The position numbers were made by a program, and so were the translations under genes. 64,000 nt of DNA from Nitrosopumilus sp. (GTDB lineage Archaea; Thermoproteota; Nitrososphaeria; Nitrososphaerales; Nitrosopumilaceae). The notes beneath the pieces were generated by a model. The model made no database searches, was not told where the DNA came from, and saw only the letters and a list, made by a program, of their open reading frames with translations. Numbering within the stretch: the stretch's first letter is position 1; each line of letters opens with the position of its first letter. Of the stretch, positions 9,308-45,393 are shown in pieces. Location of the stretch: positions 1,184,001 to 1,248,000 of the forward strand of contig OZ250186.1 of NCBI GenBank assembly GCA_965238275.1, read 5' to 3'.

Positions 9308-9631
9308 TTGTTGATCATGTCGGCACTGTTGAATTTAGGTGATCCGATCACTGAAATTTACCAGGTTCAACTTACACAGAAGAGCGGCCTGCGGTCATGC
9401 AACGCCTGCGGCCGCATAGCCAAGACAAAGCACCGCGTATTCACAACCCTCATGCTCAGAGACACGGTCATTGTGCGCCTCTGCAAGCAGTGCTATGGGT
9501 CAAAACAGATAGTCTTGAGGTATGGGAGGGGGAATGCAATTACAAAAGACATGGTCATGCCAGAAGACCTGTCGCCGGGAGACCGGGAACTGGTGGAGCG
9601 GCGCATCAGGGAAATGGGTAAAATCGCTTAA
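9308..9631 (+). CDS. CxxC hypothetical protein lying between two dyad copies (true start uncertain)
   Basis: CNACG..CKQC; the 5' part overlaps the dyad. Confidence 0.45.
   Translation: MLIMSALLNLGDPITEIYQVQLTQKSGLRSCNACGRIAKTKHRVFTTLMLRDTVIVRLCKQCYGSKQIVLRYGRGNAITKDMVMPEDLSPGDRELVERRIREMGKIA
9322..9364. repeat. 39-bp dyad family, full copy
   Basis: GGCA-CTGTTGAATTTAGGTGATC-C-GATCACTGAAATTTACCAG. Confidence 0.85.
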
Positions 9632-9645
9632 ACAAATACCCGGCC

Positions 9646-9862
9646 CCGACGGCTTTTGGTTGTCAGACTACCGGGATTTACCAAAATTGCTACATAGCCG
9701 AGCAAAAATGCATCGTTTGCAAGGAACCTGGAACGCTTCCAGGCATGGCGGTTCATGAAAGATGCGTCATGACGTCCATGGACAGGCCGGCATCGTAAAG
9801 AGGCACAAATTCAGATTCTGGGCTTAGTAGATCTTGGTTATCAGGCCACCAGAATTTACCAG
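9646..9862. repeat. Two degenerate 39-bp dyad copies (9646-9684, 9824-9862)
   Basis: About 24/39 and 29/39 matches to the consensus, counted by eye. Confidence 0.6.
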
Positions 9863-10115
9863 CCGTCTGCACTTCAGCCACAATTAGAATAATCTAGGAC
9901 AGTACGTCAAATCCCTTTTCACCGCATTCGCATTCATAATCGGCATCCAGGGCGTCACGTTCCATCGTGAAGACACGTCCGCATTGGGCGCACTTGATTG
10001 TAATGTCAGTCATCCCAAATTCTCCGACAACGTGTTTTGGCCAATATGTTGGACACTGCTGTAACGTAAAAGGGGTTATTGCAAAAAGGATCTCCGTGCC
10101 ACGAATACCGAACCG

Positions 10116-10376
10116 TCATTTAATTTTCCCCACGTAGTACAGCACCATCAGGTTGACCAGGCTGCCACTACCATTGCGTTCCACTATCTTGATCTTCGGG
10201 ACGCCGCACCTTCTGCACACCATGCAGATTATTGTCAGGTTCTTGCCTATGCTGGCAACATTGGGGTGTTCGCCGTCATGGACATCGTACTTTTTCCAGG
10301 TATGTGACATGTTGCTGCATTTTGGCCGCGAAGTGGTCCATTTTCCTATTGGAACATCCAGTATGGAATCGTACAT
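10116..10376 (-). CDS. Hypothetical protein (HxW..CRRCG)
   Basis: 86-aa ORF. Confidence 0.45.
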   Translation of the reverse strand: MYDSILDVPIGKWTTSRPKCSNMSHTWKKYDVHDGEHPNVASIGKNLTIICMVCRRCGVPKIKIVERNGSGSLVNLMVLYYVGKIK

Positions 10377-10480
10377 ACAATCAACCCCTGAGGAGGATAA
10401 AAGGGGGGATCATTGTACATGACGCGGGTTCATGGACACGACCAACATAGATATTTAGCATAGTTATCCACAGGACAGAC

Positions 10481-10717
10481 ATGGGAAAAGTAACCATAAT
10501 AACTGAATCCGTGTTAGCGTGGTGCGACAACTGTGAGGCCGAATTCACTCCCCGGATAGCGCGCAAGATCCACACATGTCCTGACTGCAGAACGGCCGTA
10601 CTTGGCGCCGAAGACGTGCCGCTTCGCGGTCCTGGCGTGCGCAAGGTGATTAAAAAGACGGTTGAAAAGGCCGCCGGCGCAGATGCCGTGATCAGTAAAA
10701 AGCCGAATGCAAAGTAA
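10481..10717 (+). CDS. Zinc-ribbon protein, tandem paralog 1
   Basis: MGKVTIIT..CDNC..FTPRIARKIHTCPDCRTAV. Confidence 0.8.
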   Translation: MGKVTIITESVLAWCDNCEAEFTPRIARKIHTCPDCRTAVLGAEDVPLRGPGVRKVIKKTVEKAAGADAVISKKPNAK

Positions 10718-10814
10718 GCATGTCTGCCCTATTCCGTGTGACACTGTACGCACCTCATGAGTTTATAATAATTATTTACCATAACTATTTAAATTAGTTA
10801 CGCATAAACGATAC

Positions 10815-11012
10815 ATGGGAAAGGTTACCATAATCACCAAATCCATAAAGGCCCATTGTGATGCGTGCGGGAAGGACTTTACGCCCAGGATAGCGCGCAA
10901 GATCCACACCTGTCCTGCCTGCAGGACTGCAGTTACGGGGGCAGAAGACGTGCCGCTTCGCGGCAACGGCGTCGATACGGTGGTAAGCAGGGACGTAGAA
11001 GCAGATGTGTAG
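10815..11012 (+). CDS. Zinc-ribbon protein, tandem paralog 2
   Basis: Near-identical core to paralog 1; own TATA-like TTTAAA upstream. Confidence 0.8.
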   Translation: MGKVTIITKSIKAHCDACGKDFTPRIARKIHTCPACRTAVTGAEDVPLRGNGVDTVVSRDVEADV

Positions 11013-11195
11013 CCGGGTTTTTTGAAGACTGGCTGCACCGTCGTCTGACAACAAGAACACTCCCATTGTAATATCGACTGGCATGGATGGCGCGGATTGG
11101 AATTGTTCCTTTTAAGCTATTTTCAATTCTGAATCCATGAATGACGAAGCGCTTGGTGCAACGCGCCCGACGTTTGGACATCATGGGATGATGGC

Positions 11196-12149
11196 ATGAG
11201 GCAGACGTATTTCGGGGATGAGCCTGTCAAGGTTACCAACAAGAAGATAATCAAGTCAAAGGGGATACGGTTCTTCACGCCGTCGGCCGAGACGCCGGAG
11301 GCGATAATTCACGACTGCGAAGAGATATACGGGCGCGACCAGTTCTACGCGCTGTCAAGCGGCGGCAAGGACAGTCAGACCATGACGGACTGGCTGGCAG
11401 AGCACGGCAAGCTAAAGGCCGTCGTGCATATCAAGACAAACGTCGGCCTCAGGATCACGCTGGATTTCCTGAAGGATTTTTGCCAGTCCAAGGGATACCG
11501 GCTTCATGTCATCGAGCCGCAGCCGAAATTCATCTATGCTGCGTTCGTTCTGCAGTACGGCTTCCCCGGGCCCGCGCTGCATGGCATGGTGATGGGCGCG
11601 CTAAAGCTCAAGACGATGCGCGACTTCATCCTCAGTGCGGACCGCAGGCGCGGTTGCCTGGTGGGCGGGGTCAGAAAATTCGAGTCCCATCGGCGGTTGA
11701 AAAAATACCCACAGCCCATAAATTCTGACGGCAACATGTTTTTTGCCGCCCCGATGTTTTACTATACCAACGAGCAGATCTACAAGGAATACACGACGCG
11801 GGGCCTTCCGATATCGCCGGCGTACAAGATGGGGTTTGGCACGTCCGGGGAGTGCCTTTGCGGGGCGTTCGCGACACACGGGGAGAAAGAATTGATCCAG
11901 AAACTAGACCCCACGCTCACGTCATATTTACAACACCTTGAGGAACTGGTGCAATTGGTGGGCACGCCGCAGGCACGCAAATTCCCGACATGGGGCGGCA
12001 GCGCAAAGATGACTGAATTGGAAGAACAGCAGATACTGAGTGACTTTTTCGCCGAAAACCCGCACTTGGCGGACGCACAGGAACTGTCCAGCATAATATG
12101 CGGTCAGGAATGCGGGCCCGGGACAATGCGCGGGATGATTGACTACTGA
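11196..12149 (+). CDS. PAPS-reductase-family (PP-loop) protein, MGE type
   Basis: SSGGKDS PP-loop, GFPGP, GVRKFES..R, SGECLCG. Confidence 0.85.
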   Translation: MRQTYFGDEPVKVTNKKIIKSKGIRFFTPSAETPEAIIHDCEEIYGRDQFYALSSGGKDSQTMTDWLAEHGKLKAVVHIKTNVGLRITLDFLKDFCQSKGYRLHVIEPQPKFIYAAFVLQYGFPGPALHGMVMGALKLKTMRDFILSADRRRGCLVGGVRKFESHRRLKKYPQPINSDGNMFFAAPMFYYTNEQIYKEYTTRGLPISPAYKMGFGTSGECLCGAFATHGEKELIQKLDPTLTSYLQHLEELVQLVGTPQARKFPTWGGSAKMTELEEQQILSDFFAENPHLADAQELSSIICGQECGPGTMRGMIDY

Positions 12150-12251
12150 GGGATTGGATGAAGGCATGCTGGCATGGATGCGCGCATCGGGCGCTGTACC
12201 GTGCCGGCGGTTTTGATTTCCCCCCTTATATTCAAACCATTTCATGGGTGC

Positions 12252-12605
12252 ATGCTAAACAAAGACGACCCAGCAAAACAAGACACAGAGATAGGCGGCA
12301 TCATAAAAAAAGTCATCATAGGCGCGGCCTTTTTGCTGATACTGCCGATAGCGGTTCCTGCAATCACCGGAGTCGACATAGTCCAGTTCTGCAACTCGGA
12401 TGGCGCGGGCGGATGCCAAGATCCAAACATAGGCACAGACGAGGGAGCGGGCAAACTGAAAGAGGGATTTGACAAGATCAAACCCGTATTGGTTGTGTTA
12501 CTGGACATCTTCTTCGTGATCATAGGGCTGGCGATACTGTTCGGACCAGGCAGGCAGCTGATCAGCTACCGGTTCGTGGTTTATGATGCAACTTCACTTG
12601 GATAA
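12252..12605 (+). CDS. Two-TM membrane protein
   Basis: Hydrophobic segments VIIGAAFLLILPIAVPAI and VLVVLLDIFFVIIGLAILF. Confidence 0.6.
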   Translation: MLNKDDPAKQDTEIGGIIKKVIIGAAFLLILPIAVPAITGVDIVQFCNSDGAGGCQDPNIGTDEGAGKLKEGFDKIKPVLVVLLDIFFVIIGLAILFGPGRQLISYRFVVYDATSLG

Positions 12606-12975
12606 GCCCATTGCCGCGGTGGCAGCAGTCCTGATTTTTTATTTCATTTTAAACCAAGAGTACAATGTTGTGTGGATTCCAGTGCTGGCGGGAATCTGGA
12701 TATACGGCGCGCGCGCCGATCTCGCATCCACATTCAGGCACGCAGACATGATGAAATACGAGTCAAACAGGCTGCTGGTGGGGTGCGTGCGGCGGTATGG
12801 TGCAAGACGCGCCGTGTCAATAAGCATTGCGTGCGAGACTGGATTCATCCTGATGATATCCGTGCTGCTGAGCAGGCCTGTCGGGTTCGATATCGCGGAT
12901 TTTGCGTTTGTTGCAGGCGTCTTCGGCGCATATCATGTTTACTGTGCCAGATCAAACTACAACTTTAAGCCATGA
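12583..12975 (+). CDS. Multi-TM membrane protein
   Basis: About four hydrophobic segments; overlaps the upstream gene. Confidence 0.6.
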   Translation: MMQLHLDKPIAAVAAVLIFYFILNQEYNVVWIPVLAGIWIYGARADLASTFRHADMMKYESNRLLVGCVRRYGARRAVSISIACETGFILMISVLLSRPVGFDIADFAFVAGVFGAYHVYCARSNYNFKP

Positions 12976-13883
12976 TGTTCTGCCAAGTATCGTGAACTTT
13001 CCGAGTATGTCAGCACACCCATGACTCATGGTAAGTCAACATCTCCGCACAGATTAACTGCTTATACCGTTTTCAATCCATTCGGTCATGACGTTAGGAG
13101 GAACCATCAAACCGTGTCCGGAATGCGGGTACACCAAGACATACCCTGAGACCATAGCAGGCGATGACCAGAGACAGATAGAGGCTGACGAGTGGGTGGC
13201 AAACGGCTGTCCGGATTGCGGCGCAAAACCATAATACACCCGGCTTTCCCTTTTTTACGAAGAGTTAACAGAGTGACATTGTAGGCTATATCTCGGGATA
13301 CTATGCCGCGTTCGTATGAAATGAAAAATTCGTCCCCACCACACAGGACCAGACCTATTTTCTTGCCGGTTTCCACCCAATGCCCGCCGGACATAGAGCA
13401 CCAACATCCATGCGTCCGCATCACACAGGGACGTCCCATTCCATGAAAAACAGAAAGCCGGCGTAATCAGGATTCGATGGCCTCAATGGCCTCCCGTATA
13501 ACGGCGGCCACCTCTGGATCGTCAATATTCTTCTCGATCTCACGAAGTTCTTCTATATTTCCCATATTGTTACATGCTATCAACACTTTAATAAACTTCC
13601 CGTATGATGTACACGAATCAAATTTGGAAGACGACCTGAAAAAAAACATCGAGCGCGCTTACGATATTATCATGGATGAGTTGGAAACGGCACGGGAATC
13701 ATACAGTGAGGCAGCAGCCCGGGTGACGCGGCTTACCGAAGTGGCCAATACGCTTCGCAATATGCTTGATTCATGATAATATGGATTAAGTACTATTATG
13801 GCTGGACACGCACCAGTTGCTACAGACTGACCCCATGCCGTTTAACGTGCATGCACGTAGCATAAGGGGGCTAAACTAATGGC

Positions 13884-13907
13884 GGCACTGTTCATTTTTG
13901 GTGATCT
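13884..13907 (+). repeat. Half copy of the dyad/TIR family
   Basis: GGCACTGTTCATTTTTGGTGATCT. Confidence 0.6.
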
Positions 13908-14070
13908 GGCTTGTATGATTTGACCTTAACCCATAATTCCGAACGGTGCCTACTTTTGTATGTAATTTCCTTTTGGGTCAATGCCAAACACTTCTGTCGG
14001 TGCGGATCATCTGGGCTTGCATGTCCCTTGACGGTACATTTCCCTTTTTAAGCGAGTCCGCCTACAATAT

Positions 14071-14526
14071 ATGGATTCAGATATACCGCAGGAACTTTCA
14101 ATGAAAGAATTCTTAAAACATGCGTTCAAGACCACGTGCATAAGGCTGTCGGGTTTTTACACGGAAGCCATGAATATCCCACAAAAGGAAGCCTTGGCGG
14201 TCGCCAACAAAACCTACCAATCAATGGTTGAACCCTGGTTGTCCTTGCCTGACGTTGAAACCGCGCCCATGGAGATTTTACATGTGGCAAAAAACGTCGC
14301 GCTGCATTATTTCAACCGGGAGGCAGGGCGGCCCAGCGTAGACAAACTGGCATACAAGTATGAGGAATATGCTGAGGCAATGGAGAAAATCAGCAAAGAC
14401 ACACGGATTCTTTACGACGACATCATAAATACGGGCATGACAGGCCAAAATGAGACATGTTCAGTGGTTTTCGTCATCTTAAAAACGGCAACACCATGCC
14501 GGCCACTTTTGCCGCGTTTTTCATGA
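14071..14526 (+). CDS. Hypothetical protein
   Basis: 151-aa ORF; TTTTTAA box about 25 nt upstream. Confidence 0.6.
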   Translation: MDSDIPQELSMKEFLKHAFKTTCIRLSGFYTEAMNIPQKEALAVANKTYQSMVEPWLSLPDVETAPMEILHVAKNVALHYFNREAGRPSVDKLAYKYEEYAEAMEKISKDTRILYDDIINTGMTGQNETCSVVFVILKTATPCRPLLPRFS

Positions 14527-14722
14527 CTTGCACGACCGATTCTGACAGATTGCATCGACATGTGGTCTCACGACATACATGACATTTGTTAAGCCTGTGC
14601 CACGTACACAGGTTGGTGCCACAACCGCCGCTGCAAACAGGTCCAAACCCTGGAATGTCATACCCAGTACATTCTTTCCCCTCGTTGGAACAACCATCCA
14701 TCTCACATTCCATGCCTTTCAT
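14474..14722 (-). CDS. Cys-rich hypothetical protein
   Basis: About 10 Cys in 82 aa. Confidence 0.4.
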   Translation of the reverse strand: MKGMECEMDGCSNEGKECTGYDIPGFGPVCSGGCGTNLCTWHRLNKCHVCRETTCRCNLSESVVQVMKNAAKVAGMVLPFLR

Positions 14723-15386
14723 AGTTCAAAACGAGTTGTACGTGTTAAAGGTACTGTTAAGTTATCGGGGCTTGCCGGCATACCGGCCACTCCGAGCAAT
14801 TTGAGCTATCACAAGATGGCCGCAAGCCTGCCAAACAAATCAGACATTTGGAGATCCGGAAACCACCAAATTCACTTATGATGAGTTCGGCCGCGCTTAA
14901 ATCAGATGCGGCCCATATGATGTAGGGTTCAAGACGATGTTTACATGTATTCATATTTGAACAGAGCTGGAGTTGTTGTGTAATCTCGTTTGATCTCTTT
15001 TTATATACGCTCTGTCGGACCGTACACAAAACTTTCCCTGTACCAGATTTTCCGTCCCAGTTTTCCGGTCAATTTTAGATCAAGATTGGAAAAATGGCAT
15101 ATTTGGAGTTTTTTAGGCACAAAAGGCATACCGCAAACCAATATCAATTGCTTAATAATGGCAGCATGTGGTAAAGATAATAACATGAACAACAAAACAA
15201 AAACAATTTTAATGCTGGTTGCGCTGATAAGCCTTCCATTGATACCTACAGCACATGCCGATCATGACACACAATATTATTGGGTAGATGAAGACGTCGA
15301 ATACAAATGCCTTAGCGGCATTAACAACATTCCAAGAACAGGTAATGTGAGTCCGTGTTCTGATTTTAGCACTGCCACAAACCATT

Positions 15387-16929
15387 AGAAAATATGCGTA
15401 ATCCCCCTGTTCACATCGATAAATTTAGATCAGGCACGATCGCGTCTCACATCAAATGCCAGACTCGCCTGATCAGATCATGCACAGATTGGAACAGGAA
15501 AACAGAAGCCTAAAAAATATTCTAAAGCAGAAAGACAAAAAGCTGGAACAGAAAGACAAAAAGCTGGAACAGAAAGACAAAAAGCTGGAACAGAAAGACA
15601 AAACCCTAAAAAATATTCTAAAGCAGAAAGACAAAAAGCTGGAACAGAAAGACAGGGAGTTGGGCCTTGAACGCGGCCTGTGGAAGAGCAGGAACGATGG
15701 CTGGAACCCCGGCAAGGGGCCCGCGTTGCACCTGCTAGAGGTGCTAGACGGCATAATACGCGACGGGGACAAGCTCCGCCATGTCACGCTGGCAGACGGG
15801 GAACAGTTCCGGTACATGCTGGAGCGGGCCAAGGTGTTTCTGACGCATTCGGGCCAGATGCCGCTGTTCCGCGATAACGCATCCCGGGTCTCCGATCCCG
15901 GAAACCGGTGCAAACTGTACCTGAGACACGCACTGCTCCTAGCACTTATCCGCAAAAAGGACAACCCCGCCCAAGGCGTGCTTGCCGCATTCTTCGGGAT
16001 AGACCAGACCACCGTGTCCCGGTACATTCCGGTGATGGATGCGATGCTGGCAGGAATACTTCCGACGGCAGACAACATATCCGAGGAGGTAGCTGCTGCC
16101 CCGACCAAGGAGGATTTCAAGAAGATCGTGCCCGGGTCCGACGGGGGCGAGATATTCATAGACGGCACGCACTGCCCCGTGCAGCGCCCGTCTGTAAAGT
16201 CAGTCCGGCGCATGAAATACTCCGGCAAGAAGAAAAAGTTCACCAACAATACCAACGTGTACGCCAACCGGGACGGGGTGGTGATCGGCATATCAAAAAG
16301 CACCGTCGGGTCAGTCGGCGACATCACGCTGCTCAAGGAACGCCCCATGCCGTTTGGAAAGTGGGAGGAGGCGATGCACGATCCGGACCTGCCAGAATCA
16401 GACAGGTGCCACCCCTTCGTCGACCGCGGCTACCAGGGAATCGCAGACCACCTGCCCGGCACCACGCCGGAGATCCCGTACAAGAAGACCAGGGACACGC
16501 CGCTGACGCCGGAGCAAAAAAAGCACAACCACAGGATCAACTCCACCCGGGTGTTGGTGGAGCACGCCATAGGCAGGCTCAAGCGCTACGCGCGTCTTGC
16601 CGACCCGTACGACGGCAACGCGGCGCAGTTCAACCGGGAGTTCAACGTGATCACCGGGCTGGTAAACCTGAACCTTTTGTGGGACTGCATGGAAAAGGGC
16701 CCGCCACCACCGGGGCAGTGGAAGACGTCAGTAGACTGGGACAGGGCCTGCTCCCAAGCTCCGGTCAAGTAGAATTCAGGGCACGATGAAGTGCTGCAAG
16801 GCTGCGCACGTCATTTTGGATTTTGGGGTGAACGGACTTGCCACATACCAGACACGACTAGTTTTAGGCCGTATTTTTCCGGTTTTTTATGGCCGGGTTG
16901 GCAAAATGGGTGGATTACGCATATCTTCT
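15387..16929 (+). mobile_element. IS5-family (ISL2/DDE_Tnp_4-like) insertion sequence
   Basis: TIR AGAA(A/G)ATATGCGTAATCC; TSD ATT (15384-15386, 16930-16932). Confidence 0.93.
15456..16772 (+). CDS. DDE_Tnp_4-like transposase with N-terminal heptad repeats
   Basis: IDGT, YSGKKKK, VDRGYQG, RVLVEHAIGRLK; (KDKKLEQ)n. Confidence 0.92.
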   Translation: MPDSPDQIMHRLEQENRSLKNILKQKDKKLEQKDKKLEQKDKKLEQKDKTLKNILKQKDKKLEQKDRELGLERGLWKSRNDGWNPGKGPALHLLEVLDGIIRDGDKLRHVTLADGEQFRYMLERAKVFLTHSGQMPLFRDNASRVSDPGNRCKLYLRHALLLALIRKKDNPAQGVLAAFFGIDQTTVSRYIPVMDAMLAGILPTADNISEEVAAAPTKEDFKKIVPGSDGGEIFIDGTHCPVQRPSVKSVRRMKYSGKKKKFTNNTNVYANRDGVVIGISKSTVGSVGDITLLKERPMPFGKWEEAMHDPDLPESDRCHPFVDRGYQGIADHLPGTTPEIPYKKTRDTPLTPEQKKHNHRINSTRVLVEHAIGRLKRYARLADPYDGNAAQFNREFNVITGLVNLNLLWDCMEKGPPPPGQWKTSVDWDRACSQAPVK

Positions 16930-17305
16930 ATTGGGATAATGTTTCTAGTAGCACTTGGGATCTTGATCCATACTCCCATGGAACGCGAATAAATATTACT
17001 GGCGCCTCACTTCAGGATGATGATTGGGCTGCCGTTGCAGGCGTAACACATAATGGAGACAACACTATTGAATATGGCTACGTCCAATTCAACACTACAT
17101 TCTCAGAGATATTTGGAGATGTAACGGCAGGCGACAACAATACCGTTGACTTTGAATACGTTGCCGTGCACGAAACTGGTCATCTTTTGAGGTTTGCTCA
17201 TAGTACAACTAATGGTAGCGTAATGGAAGCTGCTGTAGGCGTAGGAGATGATTTCACAGGCCTGCACTCACATGACATCTCAGAAATTCAAGGAAAATAC
17301 TGAAA

Positions 17306-17869
17306 ATGAGCCGTAAAAAATTGGTGTCCATTCCAGCCATTGGAGTTTCTCTAACGGTCATGTTGGTTTTTACTGTTGCAGTGATGGGATACATACCTCA
17401 TGAAAGTAAAACACATGGGTTTATGGTCGAAGGCACAGCAGAAAAAATGGCAGAAAAAGCCGATATTGCCGTTAAAGGCGTCGTAGATGATTCAAGGACA
17501 TATCTTACCTACTTTAGTGTAGGTGAATTGGTCTTCCCCAAGGTCTTTACACTGACTGATCTTCGTGTAACCGATGTGCTTTTGGGTGATTCTGGATTAG
17601 AGGGTGTTCTTATCACAATGAGGACTGTAGGCGGAACGCACAATCAAGTCACAACAGAATTTGAACCGGTTCCAACATTCGAGAGAAATGCTCAAGTCCT
17701 GGTCTATCTGGATAATCCAATAGATGATCTAGTACATGGAACATACTATGATTCACAAGGAATTCAATCTACATTTGTTCTACGTGAAAATGGTAAATAC
17801 CATGAACAATGGGATGACGAGGCTCTAGACTTAGAAAAGATAAGAGAACATCTAGAAAGAGACGGATAA
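17306..17869 (+). CDS. Membrane-anchored extracellular protein, operonic with the protease
   Basis: N-terminal TM; starts 2 nt after the protease stop. Confidence 0.8.
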   Translation: MSRKKLVSIPAIGVSLTVMLVFTVAVMGYIPHESKTHGFMVEGTAEKMAEKADIAVKGVVDDSRTYLTYFSVGELVFPKVFTLTDLRVTDVLLGDSGLEGVLITMRTVGGTHNQVTTEFEPVPTFERNAQVLVYLDNPIDDLVHGTYYDSQGIQSTFVLRENGKYHEQWDDEALDLEKIREHLERDG

Positions 17870-17886
17870 GACGTAGACAACTAACC

Positions 17887-17899
17887 TTTTTCTTTTTTT
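17887..17899 (+). terminator. Archaeal T-tract terminator
   Basis: TTTTTCTTTTTTT just after the stop at 17869. Confidence 0.5.
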
Positions 17900-18063
17900 A
17901 AGCAAACCACGATAGCGTGTTGAATACATGATAACCCGACCCACTCACCACGTGCGACGGGCTGACCCCAAATCATGCACGGTCGTCAAGACTTTCGTGC
18001 TGAATGGGGCTATCCGAGCTGCTGGATTACTGGACTTCGAGTCCTAATATCCATGTGACGGAC

Positions 18064-18106: not shown

Positions 18107-18212
18107 TGTTTTGTAGGGACGTGGCACTCTGCGATGTACCCTCCCCTCAGCATGTCGGCCAGGATGCGCGCGTCCACCTTGTCTGTCTTCTTTTTTGACT
18201 CTGCGATTATCT

Positions 18213-37493: not shown

Positions 37494-37497
37494 ACTG

Positions 37498-38193
37498 ATG
37501 ACCGAACTGAAGATTCAGCACATTCTTACCCTCTCTTATCTTCTGTCTGCAGGCGCAAGACACAACTATGTCCTGATTACCACCTCTTCCCTTGGGAGAA
37601 GCATCAAAAGGTCACAGCAGGCAGCCTCGCAGCACCTTGTGGATCTTGAGCAGGGCCGGTTCATTGAGAGGATAATGAGCGGGGGGAGCATATCTGTAAA
37701 GGTGACTCCCAAGGGATTTGCAGAGGTATCCCGGCTCTCGTCCATTCTCCAAAAGTGCATCGACTCCTCGCCGTCACACGTGGACCTTGAGGGGGTGCTG
37801 GTATCCGGAATGGGCGAGGGTGCATACTATATGGGGCTGGAGGGATACACCAGGCAGTTCAAGTCCAAGGTAGGGTATGTTCCCTTTCCCGGCACGCTCA
37901 ACGTAAGGCTTGATGAGCGGGTCTACCTGGAGGCAAAAAGACAGTTTGACGGCATGGACGGTGTGACGATAGATGGCTTTTCAGACGGGCAGAGGACATA
38001 CGGGTGGGTCAGGTGTTTTTCGGCGGTGTTAAACGGCACAACCAAATGCCAACTTGTCGTGCTTGAAAGGACGCACCATGGCGACTCCATAATAGAACTG
38101 ATCTCAAAGGTGTGCATACGGGAGGATGCCGGACTTGTAGACGGATCCCGCGTATCCCTGAAGATTCCAATCGGCTCAGATCCCGTGGATTGA
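37498..38193 (+). CDS. ribK: CTP-dependent riboflavin kinase with N-terminal wHTH
   Basis: SQQAAS, SGMGEGAYY, PFPGTLN, ERTHH. Confidence 0.92.
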   Translation: MTELKIQHILTLSYLLSAGARHNYVLITTSSLGRSIKRSQQAASQHLVDLEQGRFIERIMSGGSISVKVTPKGFAEVSRLSSILQKCIDSSPSHVDLEGVLVSGMGEGAYYMGLEGYTRQFKSKVGYVPFPGTLNVRLDERVYLEAKRQFDGMDGVTIDGFSDGQRTYGWVRCFSAVLNGTTKCQLVVLERTHHGDSIIELISKVCIREDAGLVDGSRVSLKIPIGSDPVD

Positions 38194-38802
38194 CTCGCCG
38201 TACTCTTCTTGTATCTTTGAACTGGAGATCTCCGGAATCGGGGACTGGAGCCTTGCAACCCGCGCATTCAGGTTGATCTTCTTGCATCCCTCGGTAATGA
38301 ACTTCTCCTGGTGAATCTGATCGTATCCCAGGGCGATAATCTCGGGCCTGACGTTGTCCACTGTCTTGAAGATGTCATCCTCCTGTCCGACCAGACACAG
38401 ATCCACCATCAAAAGCGATCTGACCATCTCCTGCCTCTGCTCCTGCGAGTGCAGCGGCATCTTCTTCTTCATCCTTACTGCCGTGTTGTCTGTCGCAACC
38501 ACCACCACAAGCACGTCGCCCAGCGCCTTTGCAGCATTGAGGGTATGGATGTGTCCTGGATGGATGATGTCAAAGACGCCCCCTGCCAGTACCACATGCA
38601 GCGAGTCGCGGCCAAAGTCAGTCAGCGTCTTCCTGTCTGCCTCCACAAGCTGGTTCCTTACCAGATCATCGATGCTCTCCCCAATCTTCCTTGCCGAAAG
38701 CATGCTGTTTCTTCCTATCTCCGCCAAGGGAGACGTCCCTGTAATCTGGGACGTATACATGACTGCAAGAATCCTCTTCTGGCTCTGATCCAACAACCCC
38801 AT
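38176..38802 (-). CDS. ribL: FAD synthase (cytidylyltransferase fold)
   Basis: GGVFDIIHPGH, LGYDQ, SSSKI; convergent with ribK. Confidence 0.85.
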   Translation of the reverse strand: MGLLDQSQKRILAVMYTSQITGTSPLAEIGRNSMLSARKIGESIDDLVRNQLVEADRKTLTDFGRDSLHVVLAGGVFDIIHPGHIHTLNAAKALGDVLVVVVATDNTAVRMKKKMPLHSQEQRQEMVRSLLMVDLCLVGQEDDIFKTVDNVRPEIIALGYDQIHQEKFITEGCKKINLNARVARLQSPIPEISSSKIQEEYGESIHGI

Positions 38803-38832
38803 TCATTCTCTCCCTATCTATAATTCATCATG

Positions 38833-39891
38833 CTACATCTTTGGCCCCAGGCCGTTTGCAATCATCAGCGCGTCTACCAGCCCGTCTGCATACCCGATAC
38901 TCAGCACCGCCACCTCGTCGTGCCCGTCTGCCAGAAACTTTTCTGCGTCCCTGGCATACAGGTCCGCATTCTCCAGAACCTGCAGCGACTCCTGATCCTT
39001 GCAGTATGGCCTGACCTCCTCGATGGCCTCCCTGACCATCGGCACGTACTTTTCAAGCATCTGAACCGGTATCCTCTTCAGCCTGCCGGAGTTGTCAAGC
39101 GGTTCGTCGATGCACCTGCATGACGACTTTAGGGCGTCTGACTCTGTGAAGTGCATGCTTCCGGGAACAATTATTGCGTGTGGCGGCATGCCAAAGTCCG
39201 TCTTTTCAAGGCTGGATATCATGCCTGCAACGATCGACTGGTCTGCTGAGCCTATCCTTGATGCCACTATGCAGTATGTGGACGGCGTCATGACATTCCT
39301 TGCCTGGCCCTCCTCTGTCCTGATGAGCGCAGACAGCGCGTCCCCGGGATCCAGAAAAAAATCCCCGTCCTGGCTGTACTCCAAAAGGAGTATCGTGTGG
39401 TTTCCATGGATCATGTTCCTGTATGTCACATAGTATGGGGTTGTCAGGGACTTTGCCTCGTTCATGATGGTTGCAGGCCTTCCCATCTTGTAAAAATGCA
39501 GGCCGCACTCGCCAGTCATTGCAGTGACAGCAGATGATGCATGGATGCATCCTGTTCTTATGCCCTGCTCGGCTGCCCTTGTCCTCAGCTCCGTATGCGT
39601 TGTGGCTACAAAGGGATCCCCGTACGAGGCCAGAACCACCATGCCGTCTTTGGCATTCCTGAGGATCTCGCCGCCGTCCTCCACCTGCCATCTCTTGACG
39701 AGTTTGAACCGTCCTCCTCCTCCTCCTCCTCCTCCTCCTCCTGAGGCATCCCTGATCTTGGAAATCTCTGATTCTGCGACTGGACTGGTAAAATGCTCCA
39801 GATACACCATGTCTGCACTTGAGAGTATCCCCAGTGCCTCGTTTGGGATTGAGCCAAACCCGGATATCCCGAGGCCTACAAACCACAGCAT
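38833..39891 (-). CDS. dph5: Diphthine synthase with C-terminal DUF357-like extension
   Basis: MLWFVGLG, GDPFVATTH, GLHFYKMG, HTILLL; YADGLVDAL. Confidence 0.9.
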   Translation of the reverse strand: MLWFVGLGISGFGSIPNEALGILSSADMVYLEHFTSPVAESEISKIRDASGGGGGGGGGGRFKLVKRWQVEDGGEILRNAKDGMVVLASYGDPFVATTHTELRTRAAEQGIRTGCIHASSAVTAMTGECGLHFYKMGRPATIMNEAKSLTTPYYVTYRNMIHGNHTILLLEYSQDGDFFLDPGDALSALIRTEEGQARNVMTPSTYCIVASRIGSADQSIVAGMISSLEKTDFGMPPHAIIVPGSMHFTESDALKSSCRCIDEPLDNSGRLKRIPVQMLEKYVPMVREAIEEVRPYCKDQESLQVLENADLYARDAEKFLADGHDEVAVLSIGYADGLVDALMIANGLGPKM

Positions 39892-39919
39892 GCCCTGTCC
39901 TTCCGGCATGCGCCTGTCC

Positions 39920-41077
39920 TCATGCCTGTGATCCTTCCATGCCGGTACCCGTGCCCAGCCTGCCGGCTCTTTTGTCGTGAAGCCTCTTCAGGTTGTGCAG
40001 GGTGCTCTTGATGATCTCAATTCCCTTCAGATACTCGCTGACGGAGACCTTTTCGTTGATCGTGTGGGCCTCGTGGGGGTTGCCGGGCCCGTACGTGACA
40101 ACCGGGATGCCCCACCTGCTTCCAAGTATGTTCATGTCCCCGGTTCCAGTCTTTCTGATAAGCATGGGTCTGCCATTCCCGTTCTTCATAACACTGATGA
40201 TTAGTGCCCTGACCAGCGGCGAGTCGTGGGGCGCCTCAAACGGCTCGGTCTCGTCAAGTATGGAGTATATGGCATTGACGCCCCGCTCCACCTCTATTGT
40301 CCTTACCGTGGTCTCTATATCCTGCTCCACAGACTTGCAGTTCATGTCCACTGGAATCCTGATGTCAAAGGTTATCTCGCACTCCTTGGGGGTTACATTG
40401 TGACTGCTTCCGCCCCTTACCTGGGTCATGGTCGCAGTCAGAAGCATTCCGTTGGTCTTGCCTTCCTGGCCCCTCTCCAGTTTCTCCTTGAGCTTTTCTG
40501 CAAAGATCATCGACTCTGAGATTGCATTCTTTGAAAGCCACGGTGCGCCTGCATGCGAGCTGTCCTTGACGCTTATCCTGAGGTTGATTGCAAGCCTTCC
40601 CTTGTAGGCAATAGTGATCCTGTTGATCCCGCTTGGCTCCCCAAACATGGCATAGTCTATATCCATTCTCTTCTTGACAAGGTTCTTGACCCCCGTTGCG
40701 TTTCCCTCCTCGTCTACTGCGCCGACAAAGATTATGGTCCCGCACTCGTCCTGCACTGATGCTGCTGCAAGCAGCATGGCCATCAGGGGGGCCTTTGCAT
40801 CAGAGGCCCCGCGCCCGTAGAGATAGTCCCCGTCCCTTCTCACCTTGATCTTTCCGGGAACGACGTCCATGTGTCCGCAGAGGATGATCTTGGGGGAGCC
40901 GGAGCCCTTCTTTGCAACCACGTTGCCCACCTCGTCGATCACAGTATCCTTGAATCCAAGATCATCGCACATGTCTACAAGAAATTCGGCCAGCGGCTTC
41001 TCAGCCAGGGACGGCGTATAGAACCTGAGCGTCTTTTCAAGCATCTTTGTTGCAAATTCCGGCGTTATTCTTTCCAA
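39920..41077 (-). CDS. lysK: [LysW]-lysine/ornithine hydrolase (M20)
   Basis: GHMDVV, GRGASDAK, DEE, TGTGDMN, YGPG..AH. Confidence 0.9.
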   Translation of the reverse strand: MERITPEFATKMLEKTLRFYTPSLAEKPLAEFLVDMCDDLGFKDTVIDEVGNVVAKKGSGSPKIILCGHMDVVPGKIKVRRDGDYLYGRGASDAKAPLMAMLLAAASVQDECGTIIFVGAVDEEGNATGVKNLVKKRMDIDYAMFGEPSGINRITIAYKGRLAINLRISVKDSSHAGAPWLSKNAISESMIFAEKLKEKLERGQEGKTNGMLLTATMTQVRGGSSHNVTPKECEITFDIRIPVDMNCKSVEQDIETTVRTIEVERGVNAIYSILDETEPFEAPHDSPLVRALIISVMKNGNGRPMLIRKTGTGDMNILGSRWGIPVVTYGPGNPHEAHTINEKVSVSEYLKGIEIIKSTLHNLKRLHDKRAGRLGTGTGMEGSQA

Positions 41078-41083
41078 TCTGCC

Positions 41084-41926
41084 CTAACCCTGTCTTGCAT
41101 ACTCTAGCATGATGGATGGAATGTCCACTCCGCATACCCTTACCGTATTTTTGTACTCTGTCGTATTGTTTACCTCGTGCACTACAAGCCCGTGCTCCTC
41201 GCTCTCCATCAAATCCACGCCGACAATCTCCCCCTGCACCGCATCCTTTGCCTTGATGCACATCTCCTCAAGCTCCTGGGTGACCGGGCACGGTTCTGCA
41301 ATTCCGCCAAGCGCCATGTTGGTCTTCCAGTTTCCGTCGCCGGAGATCCTGTATATTGCAGCAACCACCCTGTCCCCGACTGTGATCGCCCTAATGTCCC
41401 TTGGGGGCCTCTTGACAAACTCTTCCATATAGTGAATCTGGTATATGGGATACATGCCCTCCCTGCCCTCGATGATCCCCTCTGCCGAGTCCCTGTCGTT
41501 GAGCTTTGAGATGAGCCTTCCCCAGCTGCCCACTGTGGGCTTGATGACCCTGGGAAAGCCTTCCGTCTCCAGTGCCTGCAGGGCCGCATCCTTGGAGAAC
41601 GCGACTGTTGCATCCGGGGTCGGAACGCCATTCTTCTTTAGCAGCATGTGGGTGAACAGCTTGTTCCCGGCCAGAATCCCCGTATTGAGGCAGTTGACCA
41701 CCCTGACTCCGAGACCCTCAAGGGCCGCAGTCGAGTGCAGATTCCTGTAGTAGCTCACGCACCTCTGAATAACGGTGCCGTACCCCTCAGGCTCACTTTC
41801 CAGATTCAGTGCAAGCTTTTTGCAATCTACCATCTCTATGTCGACATCGTCTCTCCTGCCGGCCTCCAGCAGGGCCTTCTCCTCCCAACGAATGGTGTCA
41901 TAAAGAATGGTTACCTTTGGACTCAC
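41084..41926 (-). CDS. lysX: Alpha-aminoadipate--LysW ligase (ATP-grasp)
   Basis: IRWEEKAL, RCVSYYR, KPTVGSWGR, WKTNMALGG, EVNNTTEY. Confidence 0.93.
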   Translation of the reverse strand: MSPKVTILYDTIRWEEKALLEAGRRDDVDIEMVDCKKLALNLESEPEGYGTVIQRCVSYYRNLHSTAALEGLGVRVVNCLNTGILAGNKLFTHMLLKKNGVPTPDATVAFSKDAALQALETEGFPRVIKPTVGSWGRLISKLNDRDSAEGIIEGREGMYPIYQIHYMEEFVKRPPRDIRAITVGDRVVAAIYRISGDGNWKTNMALGGIAEPCPVTQELEEMCIKAKDAVQGEIVGVDLMESEEHGLVVHEVNNTTEYKNTVRVCGVDIPSIMLEYARQG

Positions 41927-42090
41927 TGCCCCCAATCCTCGCCAACCGTCTGGGCAGGCTTGAAATCAAAGCTGTCTGAACCTTTCACCAGTTCGAAACT
42001 TGCGCCACATTCCGGACATGCTACAATCTCCCCCTGCACCGCGTCATCTGGAATCGGAATATTTGCATCACATTCTTCGCATTTTGACAT
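41923..42090 (-). CDS. lysW: LysW amino-group carrier (55 aa, missed by the ORF track)
   Basis: MSKCEECDA..GEIVACPECG..EDWGQ*; overlaps the lysX start. Confidence 0.92.
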   Translation of the reverse strand: MSKCEECDANIPIPDDAVQGEIVACPECGASFELVKGSDSFDFKPAQTVGEDWGQ

Positions 42091-42170
42091 GTCTCTTCCT
42101 TCATATCCTCTCTATTTATCGTTTACAAGACGCTTTTTTCGCCCTTTTATAGAAACTGGATCACAGGATC

Positions 42171-42551: not shown

Positions 42552-42615
42552 GCCCAAAAAAACGCGAGATTTTTGGGCAAAAAATGCCAAAAAAACGAGA
42601 AGTTTTTGGGCAAAA
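42552..42615. repeat. Two 33-bp-period direct repeats, each an A/T-tract hairpin
   Basis: CCAAAAAAACG(C/A)GA..TTTTTGGGCAAAA at 42554 and 42587. Confidence 0.75.
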
Positions 42616-42930
42616 CCAGGCGCATGCCGCCTCCTTTTGCGCGGAACAGCGTTCGCTGTATGCCAATCTTGCGCGAGGAAACCCACGACGGGTTCCGCCG
42701 AGCCAATGACGATACCAGGCGTGCTTAAGATGTTTGAACGCGGCCCAAGAAAAATCCGCAAACAACCCCGAAATGGACAGTTTGGAAGGATCCTGGGAAT
42801 TGGTGAATTTGAGAAAACCAAATGGCCCCGCCTGCCAAGATGCAGTCCGCAATCAACGAGACGGACGCAAACGATTCCGCGTCCGGAATCTGTTGTTGGT
42901 GCCTTGACAATCCTTATGAATCCGTACCGC

Positions 42931-43500
42931 ATGCGAGCAGTGTTGAGCGAAGAAACACGCGAACGCCTGAAATGGATCAAAGACGAACATGAGAGAAAAG
43001 TAGCCGTCCTACTGGAAGACATAGGCCTTGATTTTGTAGATTATGACGTGAAAATTTTCGAACCGCCAAAGCCTGTAATAGGGGAGGTCGATCTCGTGTT
43101 CGAGTCAGGCAATACGCTGATTCTGGTGGAGGTGAGCGCTGGCAGGAACTCCATCAGCGATAAGCAGTGGGCCTTCTTCTCCAAATGGGCCAACGACCAA
43201 GCCATAAAGGCCTTGGTGGAAAAGATTGGCAAGCAATCGCATCCAATAACCCGGGTCCACTTCCATTTGAGGCCGCCCCCAAGCAACATGGGTGGGGCGG
43301 AAGCCGTGGGCGTGGCGAGGCCCGGCAGCAGAAACATGATATGCTACAAAGACGACTTCGATCGACTAACTGGCATGGTGGGACAAGACGGCGCTATGAG
43401 GGATGACTTCGTGCAGGCGCTGGCCGGCGATCCTGATTCCAGCAGAGACGCGCGTGGAAAACTCGGAATCAATATGGGGCTCGGCATGATTGATGTCTGA
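42931..43500 (+). CDS. PD-(D/E)XK-fold protein
   Basis: HE..VA..L, GEVDLVF..LILVEVS (catalytic Lys replaced by Ser). Confidence 0.6.
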   Translation: MRAVLSEETRERLKWIKDEHERKVAVLLEDIGLDFVDYDVKIFEPPKPVIGEVDLVFESGNTLILVEVSAGRNSISDKQWAFFSKWANDQAIKALVEKIGKQSHPITRVHFHLRPPPSNMGGAEAVGVARPGSRNMICYKDDFDRLTGMVGQDGAMRDDFVQALAGDPDSSRDARGKLGINMGLGMIDV

Positions 43501-43743
43501 TAAATTCTAGTGATCTGATCAACAAGGTCTACCACTAAGGTTCGGATGCGGCCATCTCATTTTTGAGCAACATTATTGGGTACATGACACTTTTGAACAC
43601 CGTGCCAAAATGCGGCGGGATCGAACCTGGAGAAGATCCAAAAAACACACTTTTGAACAGGAAACGTTAGAGATCACCTAAATTTACCAGAGCCCAAAAC
43701 CCACCAACCAATGTGTGCTAGATCACCTTGTTTGAACAGAGCC
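43497..43743. repeat. MITE-like element(s) of the dyad/TIR family
   Basis: Dyad 43497-43535; half sites 43671-43694 and 43720-43743; internal CACTTTTGAACA twice and CTGGAGAAGATCC. Confidence 0.75.
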
Positions 43744-43950
43744 GTCTTGTCGGTCCTGTCCACGATACTTTGACACGCTCTGGAGTTGTTCGTCATGCCG
43801 CATCTCGGGCGATTTTTTTGGTGGACATGAAGCCGTCTGTGACGTGCCTTATTGATCTGTTTGCGTTGAAAGTTTGCCTAAACGTGTCACGTTTGGTTCA
43901 TCTGTTTTTATAAAAACATTATATACACAACGTGTATACGGTATTACGTT

Positions 43951-45051
43951 ATGCTTGATATTGTGCTTGGTGGCGTCGTGGCCGCATTGACGGTGGTCTG
44001 CGTTTTGCTTTATGGAAAGAACACCAAACTAAAAACGCAATTGGATTTGGGCAATTCGCGGGAAGGCGTGTCGGACCGGTTCGAAGTGCTGGCATCTGAC
44101 GTGCTCAAGAAGAATGTGGAAGAATTCAAGACAAACACGGCAGATCCGATGGCAAAGTCGATGGAAAGCCTCCAAGCGACCATAACTACACTGAAGGAAC
44201 AAAACGCAAGCAACGCTGCTACGTTTCAGACCAGCATGGAGGCCATGAAGGATACCAACGAAAATCTGATGAAGGACACCAAGACGATTTCAGGCATACT
44301 GGGCAGCTCGCAGAAGCGCGGAAGGTTCGCCGAGGTAGGGCTGGAGCGCGTGTTCGAGATGTCGGGGCTTACGAAGGGCGTGAACTACTACATACAGCAA
44401 ACCGAGGACGGCAGGCGGCCTGACTTTGTAGTAAAGTTGTCCGAAGATCGACAAATAGCAATAGACTCAAAGGCGCCGTTGGACTCGCTGTGGAGGGCAC
44501 AGGAAGCCGAAGACGAGGCAACAAAGGCAGACGAGCTGGACAAGCATGCCAAATCCATCAGGGAACACGCCAAGAGCCTTTCCAAGAAAAAATACTCCGA
44601 GGGCGGTGGGATGATGGACTACGTGGTGATGGTGGTGCCTGAACACGCGCTGCTCCCGGCGCTGGACAGGGACGGCGGGCTTACAGAATACGCACTTGAG
44701 AACAACGTAGTGTTGGTGACGCCTGCCACCTTGATGGTAGTGCTCAACGCGGTAAACCTCATGTGGAAACAAGACGATATGGCCAAAGCCGTAAAGGTGA
44801 TAGGGAATCTTTCGACCGAGCTACATGCCAAACTGTCCAAGTTTGCGTCACACTACCAGAAGGTCGGGAAAGAACTGGACGGGGCAATCAGCGCTTACAA
44901 CTCAAGCGTGGGTTCTTGGGATCGCAGGCTGATGCCTGCCGTTGAAAAACTGGAAGACGCTGGCGCAAAAAGCGGGGACGTTCCTGCAATAGAAATAATA
45001 GACGGCAAGGCACGCGAATTGCTCCCGGTAAAAGAAGAGCGCGAGTCCTGA
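43951..45051 (+). CDS. rmuC: RmuC-family DNA recombination protein
   Basis: N-terminal TM, coiled coil, KRGRFAEVGLERV, RPDFVV, IDSKAPL, VMVVPE, VTPATL. Confidence 0.9.
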   Translation: MLDIVLGGVVAALTVVCVLLYGKNTKLKTQLDLGNSREGVSDRFEVLASDVLKKNVEEFKTNTADPMAKSMESLQATITTLKEQNASNAATFQTSMEAMKDTNENLMKDTKTISGILGSSQKRGRFAEVGLERVFEMSGLTKGVNYYIQQTEDGRRPDFVVKLSEDRQIAIDSKAPLDSLWRAQEAEDEATKADELDKHAKSIREHAKSLSKKKYSEGGGMMDYVVMVVPEHALLPALDRDGGLTEYALENNVVLVTPATLMVVLNAVNLMWKQDDMAKAVKVIGNLSTELHAKLSKFASHYQKVGKELDGAISAYNSSVGSWDRRLMPAVEKLEDAGAKSGDVPAIEIIDGKARELLPVKEERES

Positions 45052-45236
45052 AATCCAAAGCATGCATAAACCGACGTCGCAATCATTCATGCAATCCTAT
45101 CAATACGGGAACATGACCTGGGGGTTATTGAATTGGCGATCCAGCATGCAGAATGATGCGGTTTGATTACGAGAGTGGAATCATAACTGCACGGCATTTC
45201 ATGAGCCAGAATGTTGACATTCTCTGCGGTTCTTCA

Positions 45237-45393
45237 TGCTCTGGTAAGTTTTCATGATCTGACTACCAAAATTTACCAGAGCCACTTGGCAGTAAGCTCA
45301 CTTTCGAACAGTCGATTCCGCAAAATTCTGGAGAAGATCCGTATATCTCGCTTTCTAGCAGCAAATTCTCCAGATCACCACAATTGAAGAGCC
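45237..45393. repeat. MITE-like element of the dyad/TIR family
   Basis: Dyad 45241-45279; half site 45372-45393; CACTTTCGAACA and CTGGAGAAGATCC shared with the 43.5-kb copy. Confidence 0.75.

Follow-up and report, generated by a model that had tools for sequence, protein, structure and literature searches.

Dispersed 47-bp palindromes in a Nitrosopumilus genome as probable relics of a transposon family with 23-nt terminal inverted repeats

The window analysed here is the 64-kb stretch that forms bases 1184001-1248000 of the single 2,216,668-bp contig of a Nitrosopumilus genome (G000; genome coordinates carry this prefix, window positions are counted from the window's first base), and it contains scattered copies of an imperfect palindrome, or dyad, to which an earlier note on this DNA had drawn attention. 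The dyads lead to a family of DDE transposons with 23-nt terminal inverted repeats (TIRs) and 8-bp target site duplications (TSDs), most copies of which are non-autonomous. The two arms of the dyad are very probably TIRs of this family, and the dyad itself its minimal non-autonomous derivative. The family has carried single accessory genes around the genome, and the scattered palindromes are its relics.

A position weight matrix (PWM) gives the arm as 23 nt with the consensus GGCTCTGGTAAATTTTGGTGATC, and the full dyad is 47 bp, two arms whose inner (GATC) ends face each other across a 1-nt spacer. The outermost four bases, mostly GGCT or GGCA, are part of the repeat; in the PWM consensus (GGCTCTG...) positions 6 and 7 are among the better conserved and positions 1 to 4 are less so. 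A dispersed dyad or TIR family, as claimed in the earlier note, is indeed present at the places named there and far above chance: six window sites match the 19-nt half pattern at 3 or fewer mismatches (0.00 expected), and eleven match the 11-mer AAATTTACCAG at one mismatch or none (0.80 expected, and 3 in the richest shuffle). A repeat search puts 9326, 9824, 18064, 43497 and 45241 into a single 38-nt family, whose members are 68-100% identical to the copy at 18064 taken as reference. Arms of the same dyad are no more alike (17.4/23) than arms of different dyads (17.5/23), that is, there is no arm-to-arm covariation, which fits ends that are bound by a protein and not a hairpin under selection. 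We note that the dyad at G000 1122936-1122982 is unlike all others, both of its arms having the same private variant AAATCCAGG and being identical at 21 of 23 positions; it reflects either copying from arm to arm or a palindromic duplication of recent date.

Over the whole genome there are 41, 70, 94 and 171 half-sites at up to 2, 3, 4 and 5 mismatches (0, 0, 3 and 20 for the reversed control), and the PWM scan that the earlier note had suggested finds 125 sites of at least 12 bits, against 6 in the control; seven identical matches inside an IS66-type insertion sequence (IS) are a chance look-alike and were removed before the PWM and TSD tests. The genome has 24 dyads, and its sites take four forms, namely solo dyads, miniature inverted-repeat transposable elements (MITEs) of 200-202 bp (eight full copies, including window 43493-43694), MITEs of 72-120 bp of a CTGTTCA sub-family, and solo arms. 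Of 151 genomes of the genus, 27, mainly the larger ones, contain the TIR pattern at 2 mismatches or fewer, and none contains its reversed control; in G017, the nearest relative with 86% identity over lysX, there are 11 matches, mainly of a sister sub-family. A wider scan of genome contigs gave 19 stretches: 13 in metagenome-assembled genomes (MAGs) of sponge-type Nitrosopumilus or Cenarchaeum, two in contigs binned as Poribacteria, and four single matches in unrelated bacteria or archaea, which by our estimate is about the number due to chance. Metagenome contigs yielded two further matching stretches. By its gene content G000 itself is archaeal.

The Poribacteria label deserves a comment. Contigs L021 and L030, from a MAG labelled Candidatus Poribacteria, both hold elements of the TIR family, and L021 also has a gene with 67.5% DNA identity to G000 149371-150002 and a transposon 3' end with 82% identity to G000 92714-92935; the two contigs look thaumarchaeal and mis-binned, not like a case of cross-domain transfer. 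In a Cenarchaeum MAG (L026/L027) and at G000 711216-713015, open reading frames (ORFs) of 228, 150 and 227 amino acids (aa), matched by size and order alone, are arranged alike, in order as in orientation, next to the same 200-bp MITE; the G000 set reads as a membrane protein, a small protein and an S-adenosylmethionine-dependent methyltransferase.

That such ends have moved DNA is recorded most directly inside another transposable element. The IS66-type copy at G000 1986314-1989189 exceeds its sisters in length by 1.25 kb, which consist of a dyad, a PAPS (3'-phosphoadenosine 5'-phosphosulfate) reductase gene and a second dyad (1986442-1987689); four intact IS66-type sisters are uninterrupted at this point and so provide an exact empty site, of the kind the earlier note had proposed to look for, and the 8 bases CATGTCTG are duplicated at both junctions. 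Among 89 pairs of plus and minus ends within 15 kb of each other, five are flanked by identical 8-mers and one by 8-mers with a single mismatch (0 of 445 identical in the shifted control); among 225 PWM-site pairs within 60 kb the numbers are six and two, with 0 of 675 control pairs at one mismatch or fewer. TSDs in inverted orientation, the footprint of intramolecular inversion, were seen in none of 373 pairs at that stringency. In all, six to seven units with identical 8-mers are present in G000 and three in the relatives G155 and G159, and none in the controls. The units found in G000 are 672574-673524 (951 bp; TSD GTAGTGTT / GTAGTGTC), 708592-713380 (4789 bp; GTAATTTT), 1110135-1113604 (3470 bp; AGTCCGGC), 1948325-1953068 (4744 bp; TGATTTGG), 1948532-1951945 nested within the latter (3414 bp; CCCAAGGA), and 1986442-1987689 (1248 bp; CATGTCTG); a pair at 786921-789723, with low PWM scores, and a 45.7-kb pair with one mismatch are doubtful. 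None of the TSD-bearing units lies in the window, and the statement in the earlier note that no TSDs are visible is correct for the window but does not hold for the family.

The cargo of these units, named from reading of the translations (and, for window proteins, also from Pfam), includes a CysH-like PAPS reductase, a HEPN and nucleotidyltransferase pair, an ABC ATPase and a methyltransferase with two neighbours, as well as later IS insertions. Three of the units (G000 672574, 1110135 and 1986442) and one of G159 consist of a dyad, cargo and a second dyad; in the G159 unit (2361 bp; TSD CGAAAACC) the two dyads, compared by eye at the junctions, are identical at 47 of 47 positions. The dyads that flank the 1986442 and 1110135 units agree at 45/47 and 44/47 positions as direct repeats and at 32 and 35 as inverted repeats; they are mutual closest relatives, and the best of 88 other dyad pairs reaches 41/47. 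The inner flanks of the dyads have no duplication of their own, which makes two separate dyad insertions unlikely. From this anatomy we lean, by a small margin, towards a cointegrate route for the dyad-cargo-dyad units, as in IS26-type pseudo-compound transposons. Cargo and one dyad would form a circle, a transposase acting in trans would fuse that circle into the target by replicative, copy-in cointegrate formation, and replication would thereby duplicate the dyad as direct repeats with the 8-bp target sequence outside them.

The autonomous form of the family was found intact solely in related genomes, where it is 5085-6283 bp long and has 3-5 ORFs. The G159 copy (5431 bp; TSD TCCTCATA) encodes a cytosine-5 methylase, a HATPase_c_3 protein and a 540-aa protein, and the G155 copy (5085 bp; TSD GAATCCCA) has a 537-aa homologue of the last at its right end and a subterminal repeat 157 bp inside each end; a third copy, in G146 (6283 bp), is laid out like that of G155. 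Each end of the autonomous element has a terminal TIR and a subterminal repeat about 120-160 bp inward, and its passengers are either a cytosine methylase together with a BbrUII-like ATPase/restriction gene or other genes. The parent transposase, of 536-543 aa and encoded at the right end of the element, combines a DDE core of IS6 type with CxxC pairs at its N- and C-terminal ends; D136, D244, E300, W303 and K307 are invariant in 12 homologues, in which the terminal CxxC pairs are also kept, and the 540-aa protein scores 36.6 bits with the Pfam model DDE_Tnp_IS240 (cut-off 27). The gene adjoins the right-end repeats in every full or partial copy found: in six copies, from five relatives, the gap between its end and those repeats is 0-250 bp. 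In a second G155 copy the gap is about 1.4 kb and holds an additional 198-aa ORF; in G153 the closest right-end site listed is about 1.3 kb away from one copy, and a short remnant stands about 170 bp away from such a site. Relatives of the transposase are rare, 28 among 5.8 billion proteins and all from metagenome or MAG sources, and the family is unnamed in the sources searched, one of which has "transposase-like protein". Thirteen of the 151 genus genomes have transposase matches, ten of them among the 27 with the motif; the other three matches are weak.

G000 itself has no intact parent transposase, just a C-terminal remnant of about 80 codons (codons 445-527, G000 92470-92718) that lies immediately before a right long end (92754-92935), with a dyad at 92032, and no transposase gene is found among the cargo of its TSD-bearing units. 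The transposase gene that the earlier note had proposed to seek between paired ends is therefore lacking from the units of this genome and present, at 536-543 aa, in the autonomous copies of its relatives. The association of the right long end with the transposase allows the 200-bp MITE to be read as the parent's left TIR followed, after one base, by its complete right long end. Contigs of four public sequencing runs that cover the 672574-673524 unit contain neither a joint that skips the unit nor a circle joint, contigs being blind to rare forms, and those from two strains a few per cent diverged cross its left junction. An empty-site search by joining flanks within the genome returned a single result, the chance look-alike in an IS66-type element. 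As there is no intact transposase, and two diverged strains cross the 672574 junction, the family is probably inactive here; the roughly 80 motif loci of this genome are non-autonomous and probably no longer mobile. The 8-bp TSD units, the exact empty site and the distantly IS6-like transposase of the relatives' copies together bear out one of the two explanations offered in the earlier note, that of ends with IS6-like starts that belong to a non-autonomous cargo-mobilising element.

The closest comparison is with the IS6 family, described in one review (PMC7986276) as having 8-bp repeats, pseudo-compound transposons between direct repeats and exclusive cointegrate formation, in ISs of about 700-900 bp with a single transposase of 213-254 aa; IS6 TIRs start with GG and have G at position 7, and the archaeal transposases have the motif E--F---K-R, according to a second (PMC6807381). 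The family described here shares the 8-bp target duplication, the GG start and the G at position 7 of the TIR, and cargo between direct copies with the TSD outside; its E--W---K spacing resembles the archaeal motif of PMC6807381, its DDE core is above the cut-off of Pfam DDE_Tnp_IS240, and its best NCBIfam family is transpos_IS6. It differs in the length of the transposase (536-543 aa, with extra N- and C-terminal CxxC modules, versus 213-254 aa) and of the element (5-6 kb, with 2-4 passengers and subterminal repeats, versus about 800 bp), in a TIR of 23 nt versus 14 nt, in a flanking "IS" that is a gene-less 47-bp TIR-TIR dyad, and in an NCBIfam score far below the equivalog cut-off. Size, multi-gene organisation and the sub-threshold NCBIfam score lead us to file the element as IS6-related and not as an IS6 member. 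The portions available of PMC7986276 list two MITEs of 227 and 336 bp and one passenger-carrying member, and archaeal members from halophiles, Thermococcales, Methanococcales and Sulfolobales; in the parts available of the two reviews (PMC7986276, PMC6807381) no thaumarchaeal IS6 clade is named, and full-text literature searches returned, among the items listed, no relevant description of such a transposon from Thaumarchaeota or sponge symbionts. The short forms compare well with MITEs in having parent-transposon ends, no transposase gene, many copies and mobilisation in trans, and the 200-202-bp and 72-120-bp forms are of ordinary MITE size with a parent in related genomes; the dyad differs in being two TIRs and one base only, in having no TSD of its own, and in moving visibly only when paired around cargo. 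The distinctive features are an unusually small, gene-less flanking unit and an unusually large and rare transposase.

Several observations weigh against parts of this reading. The transpos_IS6 score of the 540-aa protein is 37-41 bits, far below the cut-off of 125, the transposase is twice the usual IS6 length, and elements of 5-6 kb with passengers are not what that family leads one to expect. One of the three complete autonomous copies (G146) has no TSD, and six of the 15 genomes with five or more motif matches have no transposase match. The dyads of the third dyad-cargo-dyad unit (672574-673524) are just 36/47 alike, this unit being older. Solo dyads and 200-bp MITEs have no matching flanking 8-mers of their own and may never have moved as single units, and in the window the 8-mers that flank PWM sites show no TSD, direct or inverted, for any pair of ends. 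Mobility is therefore demonstrated for the family and not for the window's own copies, which are older or rearranged members within accessory DNA. Cointegrate formation, finally, is a step that we infer from anatomy alone.

The most serious alternative accepts the same transposon family and takes the units for ordinary composite transposons, moved by cut-and-paste or replicatively from their outermost TIRs, with the inner arms as passengers and no one-dyad circle. The TSDs do flank the outermost TIRs, autonomous copies with a single TIR at each end have TSDs of the same kind, and the nested or long units 708592-713380 and 1948325-1953068 are bounded by single TIRs or long ends and not by dyads. 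Two independent dyad insertions, however, would each have left their own 8-bp repeats, and the inner flanks differ from the outer; moreover, the paired dyads share private variants as direct repeats to the extent given above, as duplication through a cointegrate would produce. We regard the composite scheme as a less likely but substantial alternative. A quite different idea is that the dyads are palindromes kept by the host for structure or regulation (repetitive extragenic palindrome (REP)-like sequences, terminators or operators), or mainly landing pads for IS110-type elements. As single-stranded DNA hairpins two of three window dyads tested fold clearly better than shuffled sequences (z = -5.3 and -5.4), IS110-family genes do occur in split dyads or MITEs of G159, G161 and the window, and one MITE provides a stop codon; yet the third dyad (z = -1.9) folds no better than shuffles, the arms show none of the covariation, or compensatory change, of a maintained hairpin, and patchy presence in the genus together with the TSDs shows a mobile origin. 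The Y1 transposases that accompany REP (RAYT) and IS200/IS605 palindromes have no match in this genome (PF01797; controls positive), and IS110 targeting is compatible with dyads made of transposon ends, so that we think a host-kept palindrome improbable.

The remaining two alternatives were both raised by the earlier note, and we give each very little credence. In one the dyads are att-like recombination sites of a cassette system run by atypical tyrosine recombinases. Single-gene cargo does lie between direct repeats, the recombinase gene at 23677-25035 is followed some 130 bp downstream by a half-site, an integrase gene is found about 250 bp away from a MITE at one MAG locus, and integron attC sites are likewise imperfect palindromes that border single-gene accessory units. 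An 8-bp duplication is the mark of a DDE transposase and not of a tyrosine recombinase. Neither these duplications nor an exact empty site free of dyads suits conservative site-specific recombination; unlike integron cassettes, the units form no array, adjoin no integrase and occupy unrelated insertion sites, including the inside of an IS; six of the seven recombinase paralogues have no site within 400 bp; and the autonomous copies hold a DDE transposase. The cassette proposal of the earlier note is accordingly abandoned. In the other, which the earlier note had named as one outcome that would overturn its view, the motif is simply the TIR of an IS already in the genome or of a well-known family (IS903/IS5-type, IS1595 or ISL3). 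Two low-copy IS5-type families have ends that start GGCGTTGTCCA, loosely like the motif, and an IS1595 gene stands beside a MITE in one MAG, but the duplications of both IS5-type families are 9-10 bp long, the TIR is absent from all 59 repeat families of the genome (276 segments), the Pfam IS1595 and ISL3 models are negative in the genome, and of 30 IS1595 loci in the genus 29 lack the motif and one has weak sites only.

With the transposon-end reading of the dyads we return to the genome as a whole. A self-BLAST gives 276 repeated segments of at least 600 bp in 59 families, which make up 17.7% of the DNA, with transposases of the IS630, IS5, IS66, IS481/IS3-like and IS110 types plus TnpB; there are at least six distinct IS66-type families. 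The Pfam models for IS1595, ISL3 and Y1 transposases have no match in the genome and do match in control genomes; the hAT model also has none, and as no control genome was positive either this carries little weight. In the ISfinder table one IS1595 sub-group has a comparable end motif and an 8-bp repeat, a lead that failed when tested: IS1595 genes occur in 28 of the 151 genus genomes, and 29 of the 30 loci lack the motif. An IS5-type transposase beside a dyad in G006 belongs to an unrelated IS inserted next to the dyad, and the IS630 elements that lie close to sites in MAG loci end in TIRs of another kind, their own. A 1695-bp IS6-like IS of this genome (the one element that PF13610 finds there; six copies, including G000 853916-855610 and 1995781-1997475) is a relative and not the parent: it has ends that begin GGTTCTCCTGCAT, a TSD of about 9 bp and a transposase with 24% identity to the 540-aa protein over the DDE core. 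This transposase, with an N-terminal zinc-binding domain, scores 84 bits with NCBIfam transpos_IS6 over the full model, and the ends of the IS are similar to the TIR variant that the dyad family has in G159; the IS probably represents a sister lineage.

Elements of the family have repeatedly been settled by IS110-type elements. In G159 the two halves of a dyad are separated by a 371-aa IS110-family gene (NCBIfam transpos_IS110, 230.8 bits; cut-off 140), a 260-bp MITE of the TIR family in G161 contains a related gene, and a further IS110-type fragment abuts the MITE at G000 1064432. The window has such a gene on the minus strand, split by an IS66-type insertion (18213-20514) and flanked by the dyad that ends at 18106 and by a decayed half-site at 20934-20956, and its junction, GTGCATC|AGATCAC, is like that of G159, GTGCATT|GATCAC. 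Members of the IS1111/IS110 group insert into repeated palindromes and transposon ends such as attC, REP and Tn21-type inverted repeats, and an RNA-guided IS110-family transposase gene in a split dyad, in a MITE and beside window half-sites is of the same kind; the difference is that here IS110 is a secondary tenant of the dyads and not their origin.

A fuller proposal, which we put forward tentatively and would not be surprised to see fail, is that this is an IS6-related lineage new to science in sponge-associated Thaumarchaeota, with a double-length zinc-ribbon transposase, restriction-modification passengers and subterminal repeats, in which the dyad may act as a gene-less IS26, a circle of dyad and gene being copied in as dyad-gene-dyad to give cassette-like shuffling of single genes, and in which dyads may serve as landing sites for RNA-guided IS110 elements. 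The units offer a concrete mechanism, with exact junctions, for placing or moving single accessory genes (a sulfate-assimilation reductase, a HEPN/nucleotidyltransferase pair, an ABC ATPase, methyltransferases) in the genomes of archaeal sponge symbionts, which are laden with ISs. Pseudo-compound transposition in the manner of IS26, familiar chiefly from antibiotic-resistance plasmids, would be extended to a distant archaeal relative with a 47-bp flanking "IS", and a rare transposase family now has defined ends. For annotation, dyads are useful markers of accessory DNA and should not be taken as att sites.

In the window the PWM, at 12 bits or more, finds ends at 9322, 9368, 9688, 9866, 13884, 18060, 18106, 23520, 43493, 43694, 43743, 45237, 45283 and 45395, and all 14 lie outside the block that is conserved by synteny with G017 (about 25177-42123, interrupted by two IS66-type insertions). 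There is no PWM site between 23543 and 43492, and the absence of copies from the core block, as claimed earlier, is upheld. To the left of the conserved block about 161 kb, and to the right about 58 kb, have no counterpart at the same place in G017; these two non-syntenic stretches and the core block of about 17 kb between them (G000 1047731-1283963; 236 kb, 10.7% of the genome) hold 23 of the 79 motif loci of the genome.

Most of the individual copies listed in the earlier note were recovered by the PWM. The leftmost is the 47-bp dyad at 9322-9368, two 23-nt TIRs with a 1-nt spacer and no TSD; the copy formerly placed at 9646 is one degenerate single arm of at least 12 bits at 9666-9688 (minus strand), and a degenerate dyad follows at 9820-9866, with 5 and 3 mismatches to the consensus in its arms and 68% identity to the reference copy. 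At 13884-13955 (plus strand) is a 72-bp mini-MITE of the CTGTTCA sub-family, with a full 23-nt left TIR and a short, decayed right end and with three sister copies elsewhere in the genome. The best window copy, the 47-bp dyad at 18060-18106, abuts about codon 157 of the IS110-type gene. The truncation of an IS110 element by a copy, also reported before, is real: the remnant at 18107-18212 (minus strand; about aa 120-157, 74% identical by tblastn to the G159 IS110 protein) is cut on its left by the dyad and on its right by the 2302-bp IS66-family IS at 18213-20514 (plus strand), which is outside the TIR family and inserted into the IS110 remnant. The N-terminal part of the IS110-family gene (about aa 3-128) and the 5' end of the element lie at 20515-20933 (minus strand; from tblastn and the junction sequence) and are abutted by the degenerate half-site at 20934-20956 (minus strand), which was seen by eye, is below the PWM threshold and has the G159-like junction.

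Further right, a solo TIR of the CTGTTCAAA sub-family at 23520-23542 (plus strand) lies about 130 bp beyond the 3' end of the gene for the 452-aa tyrosine recombinase. The site at 43497, formerly called a full copy, does belong to the 38-nt family but is one end of the 202-bp MITE 43493-43694 (plus strand) and not a solo dyad; this MITE has 80-84% identity to four sister copies and consists of a left TIR, 1 nt and a right end of the parent of about 176 bp (subterminal repeat and terminal TIR). The stop codon of the ORF 42637-43500 comes from its TIR, in agreement with the overlap noted at 43498. A second solo TIR of the CTGTTCAAA sub-family at 43721-43743 (minus strand), without a TSD, is by sequence the inverted partner of that at 23520, and the repeat search pairs the two as 23520-23550 and 43713-43743 (31 nt, 87%). 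A decayed 47-bp dyad at 45237-45283, downstream of rmuC (43951-45051), and a degenerate solo half-site of at least 12 bits at 45373-45395 (minus strand) complete the set.

The inverted pair formed by the dyads at 9322 and 18106 had been suspected of enclosing cargo. The inverted repeat exists (9322-9366 and 18062-18106, 45 nt and 87% complementary in the repeat search), the two dyads agreeing at 40/47 positions inverted versus 37/47 direct, and the pair is not shown as a mobile unit, with no TSD in either orientation. The 8.7 kb between them are a mosaic, and the cargo at 9369-15380 is represented by pieces in five of the 151 genus genomes and as a whole block in none. Neither 9322-18106 nor 43493-45283 can be called a unit.

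We note some further features of the window and genome. The 2302-bp IS66-family IS is present in the window twice, at 6091-8392 and 18213-20514, as 100% identical copies in inverted orientation that bracket 9.8 kb, which they could invert; it has TIRs of about 100 bp and a 599-aa transposase with a 21-bp tandem repeat in the N-terminal part of its gene, and accounts for 16 segments in the genome. The atypical tyrosine recombinases, of 450-600 aa, are seven paralogues (window 23677-25035, minus strand; 51723-53507, plus strand; and five more G000 loci) that are 37-61% identical to the 452-aa copy, some of them with long low-complexity tails, one of which is in part the product of CAG/CAA repeats at 53237-53405. 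A word of about 17 nt, GCCACCCTAAGTTAACA, occurs three times within 110 bp at 20985-21090, upstream of an HMGL-like/homocitrate-synthase-like gene at 21167, and the 160 bp at 43746-43905, beside the MITE, belong to another small repeat family, of which G017 has two full copies and a partial one at 80% identity. The right end of the window (53898-64000), in DNA without a G017 counterpart at the same place, is occupied by very large genes made of 75-, 153- and 156-bp tandem repeats, including an ORF of 1909 aa at 56445-62174, which probably encode repetitive surface proteins.

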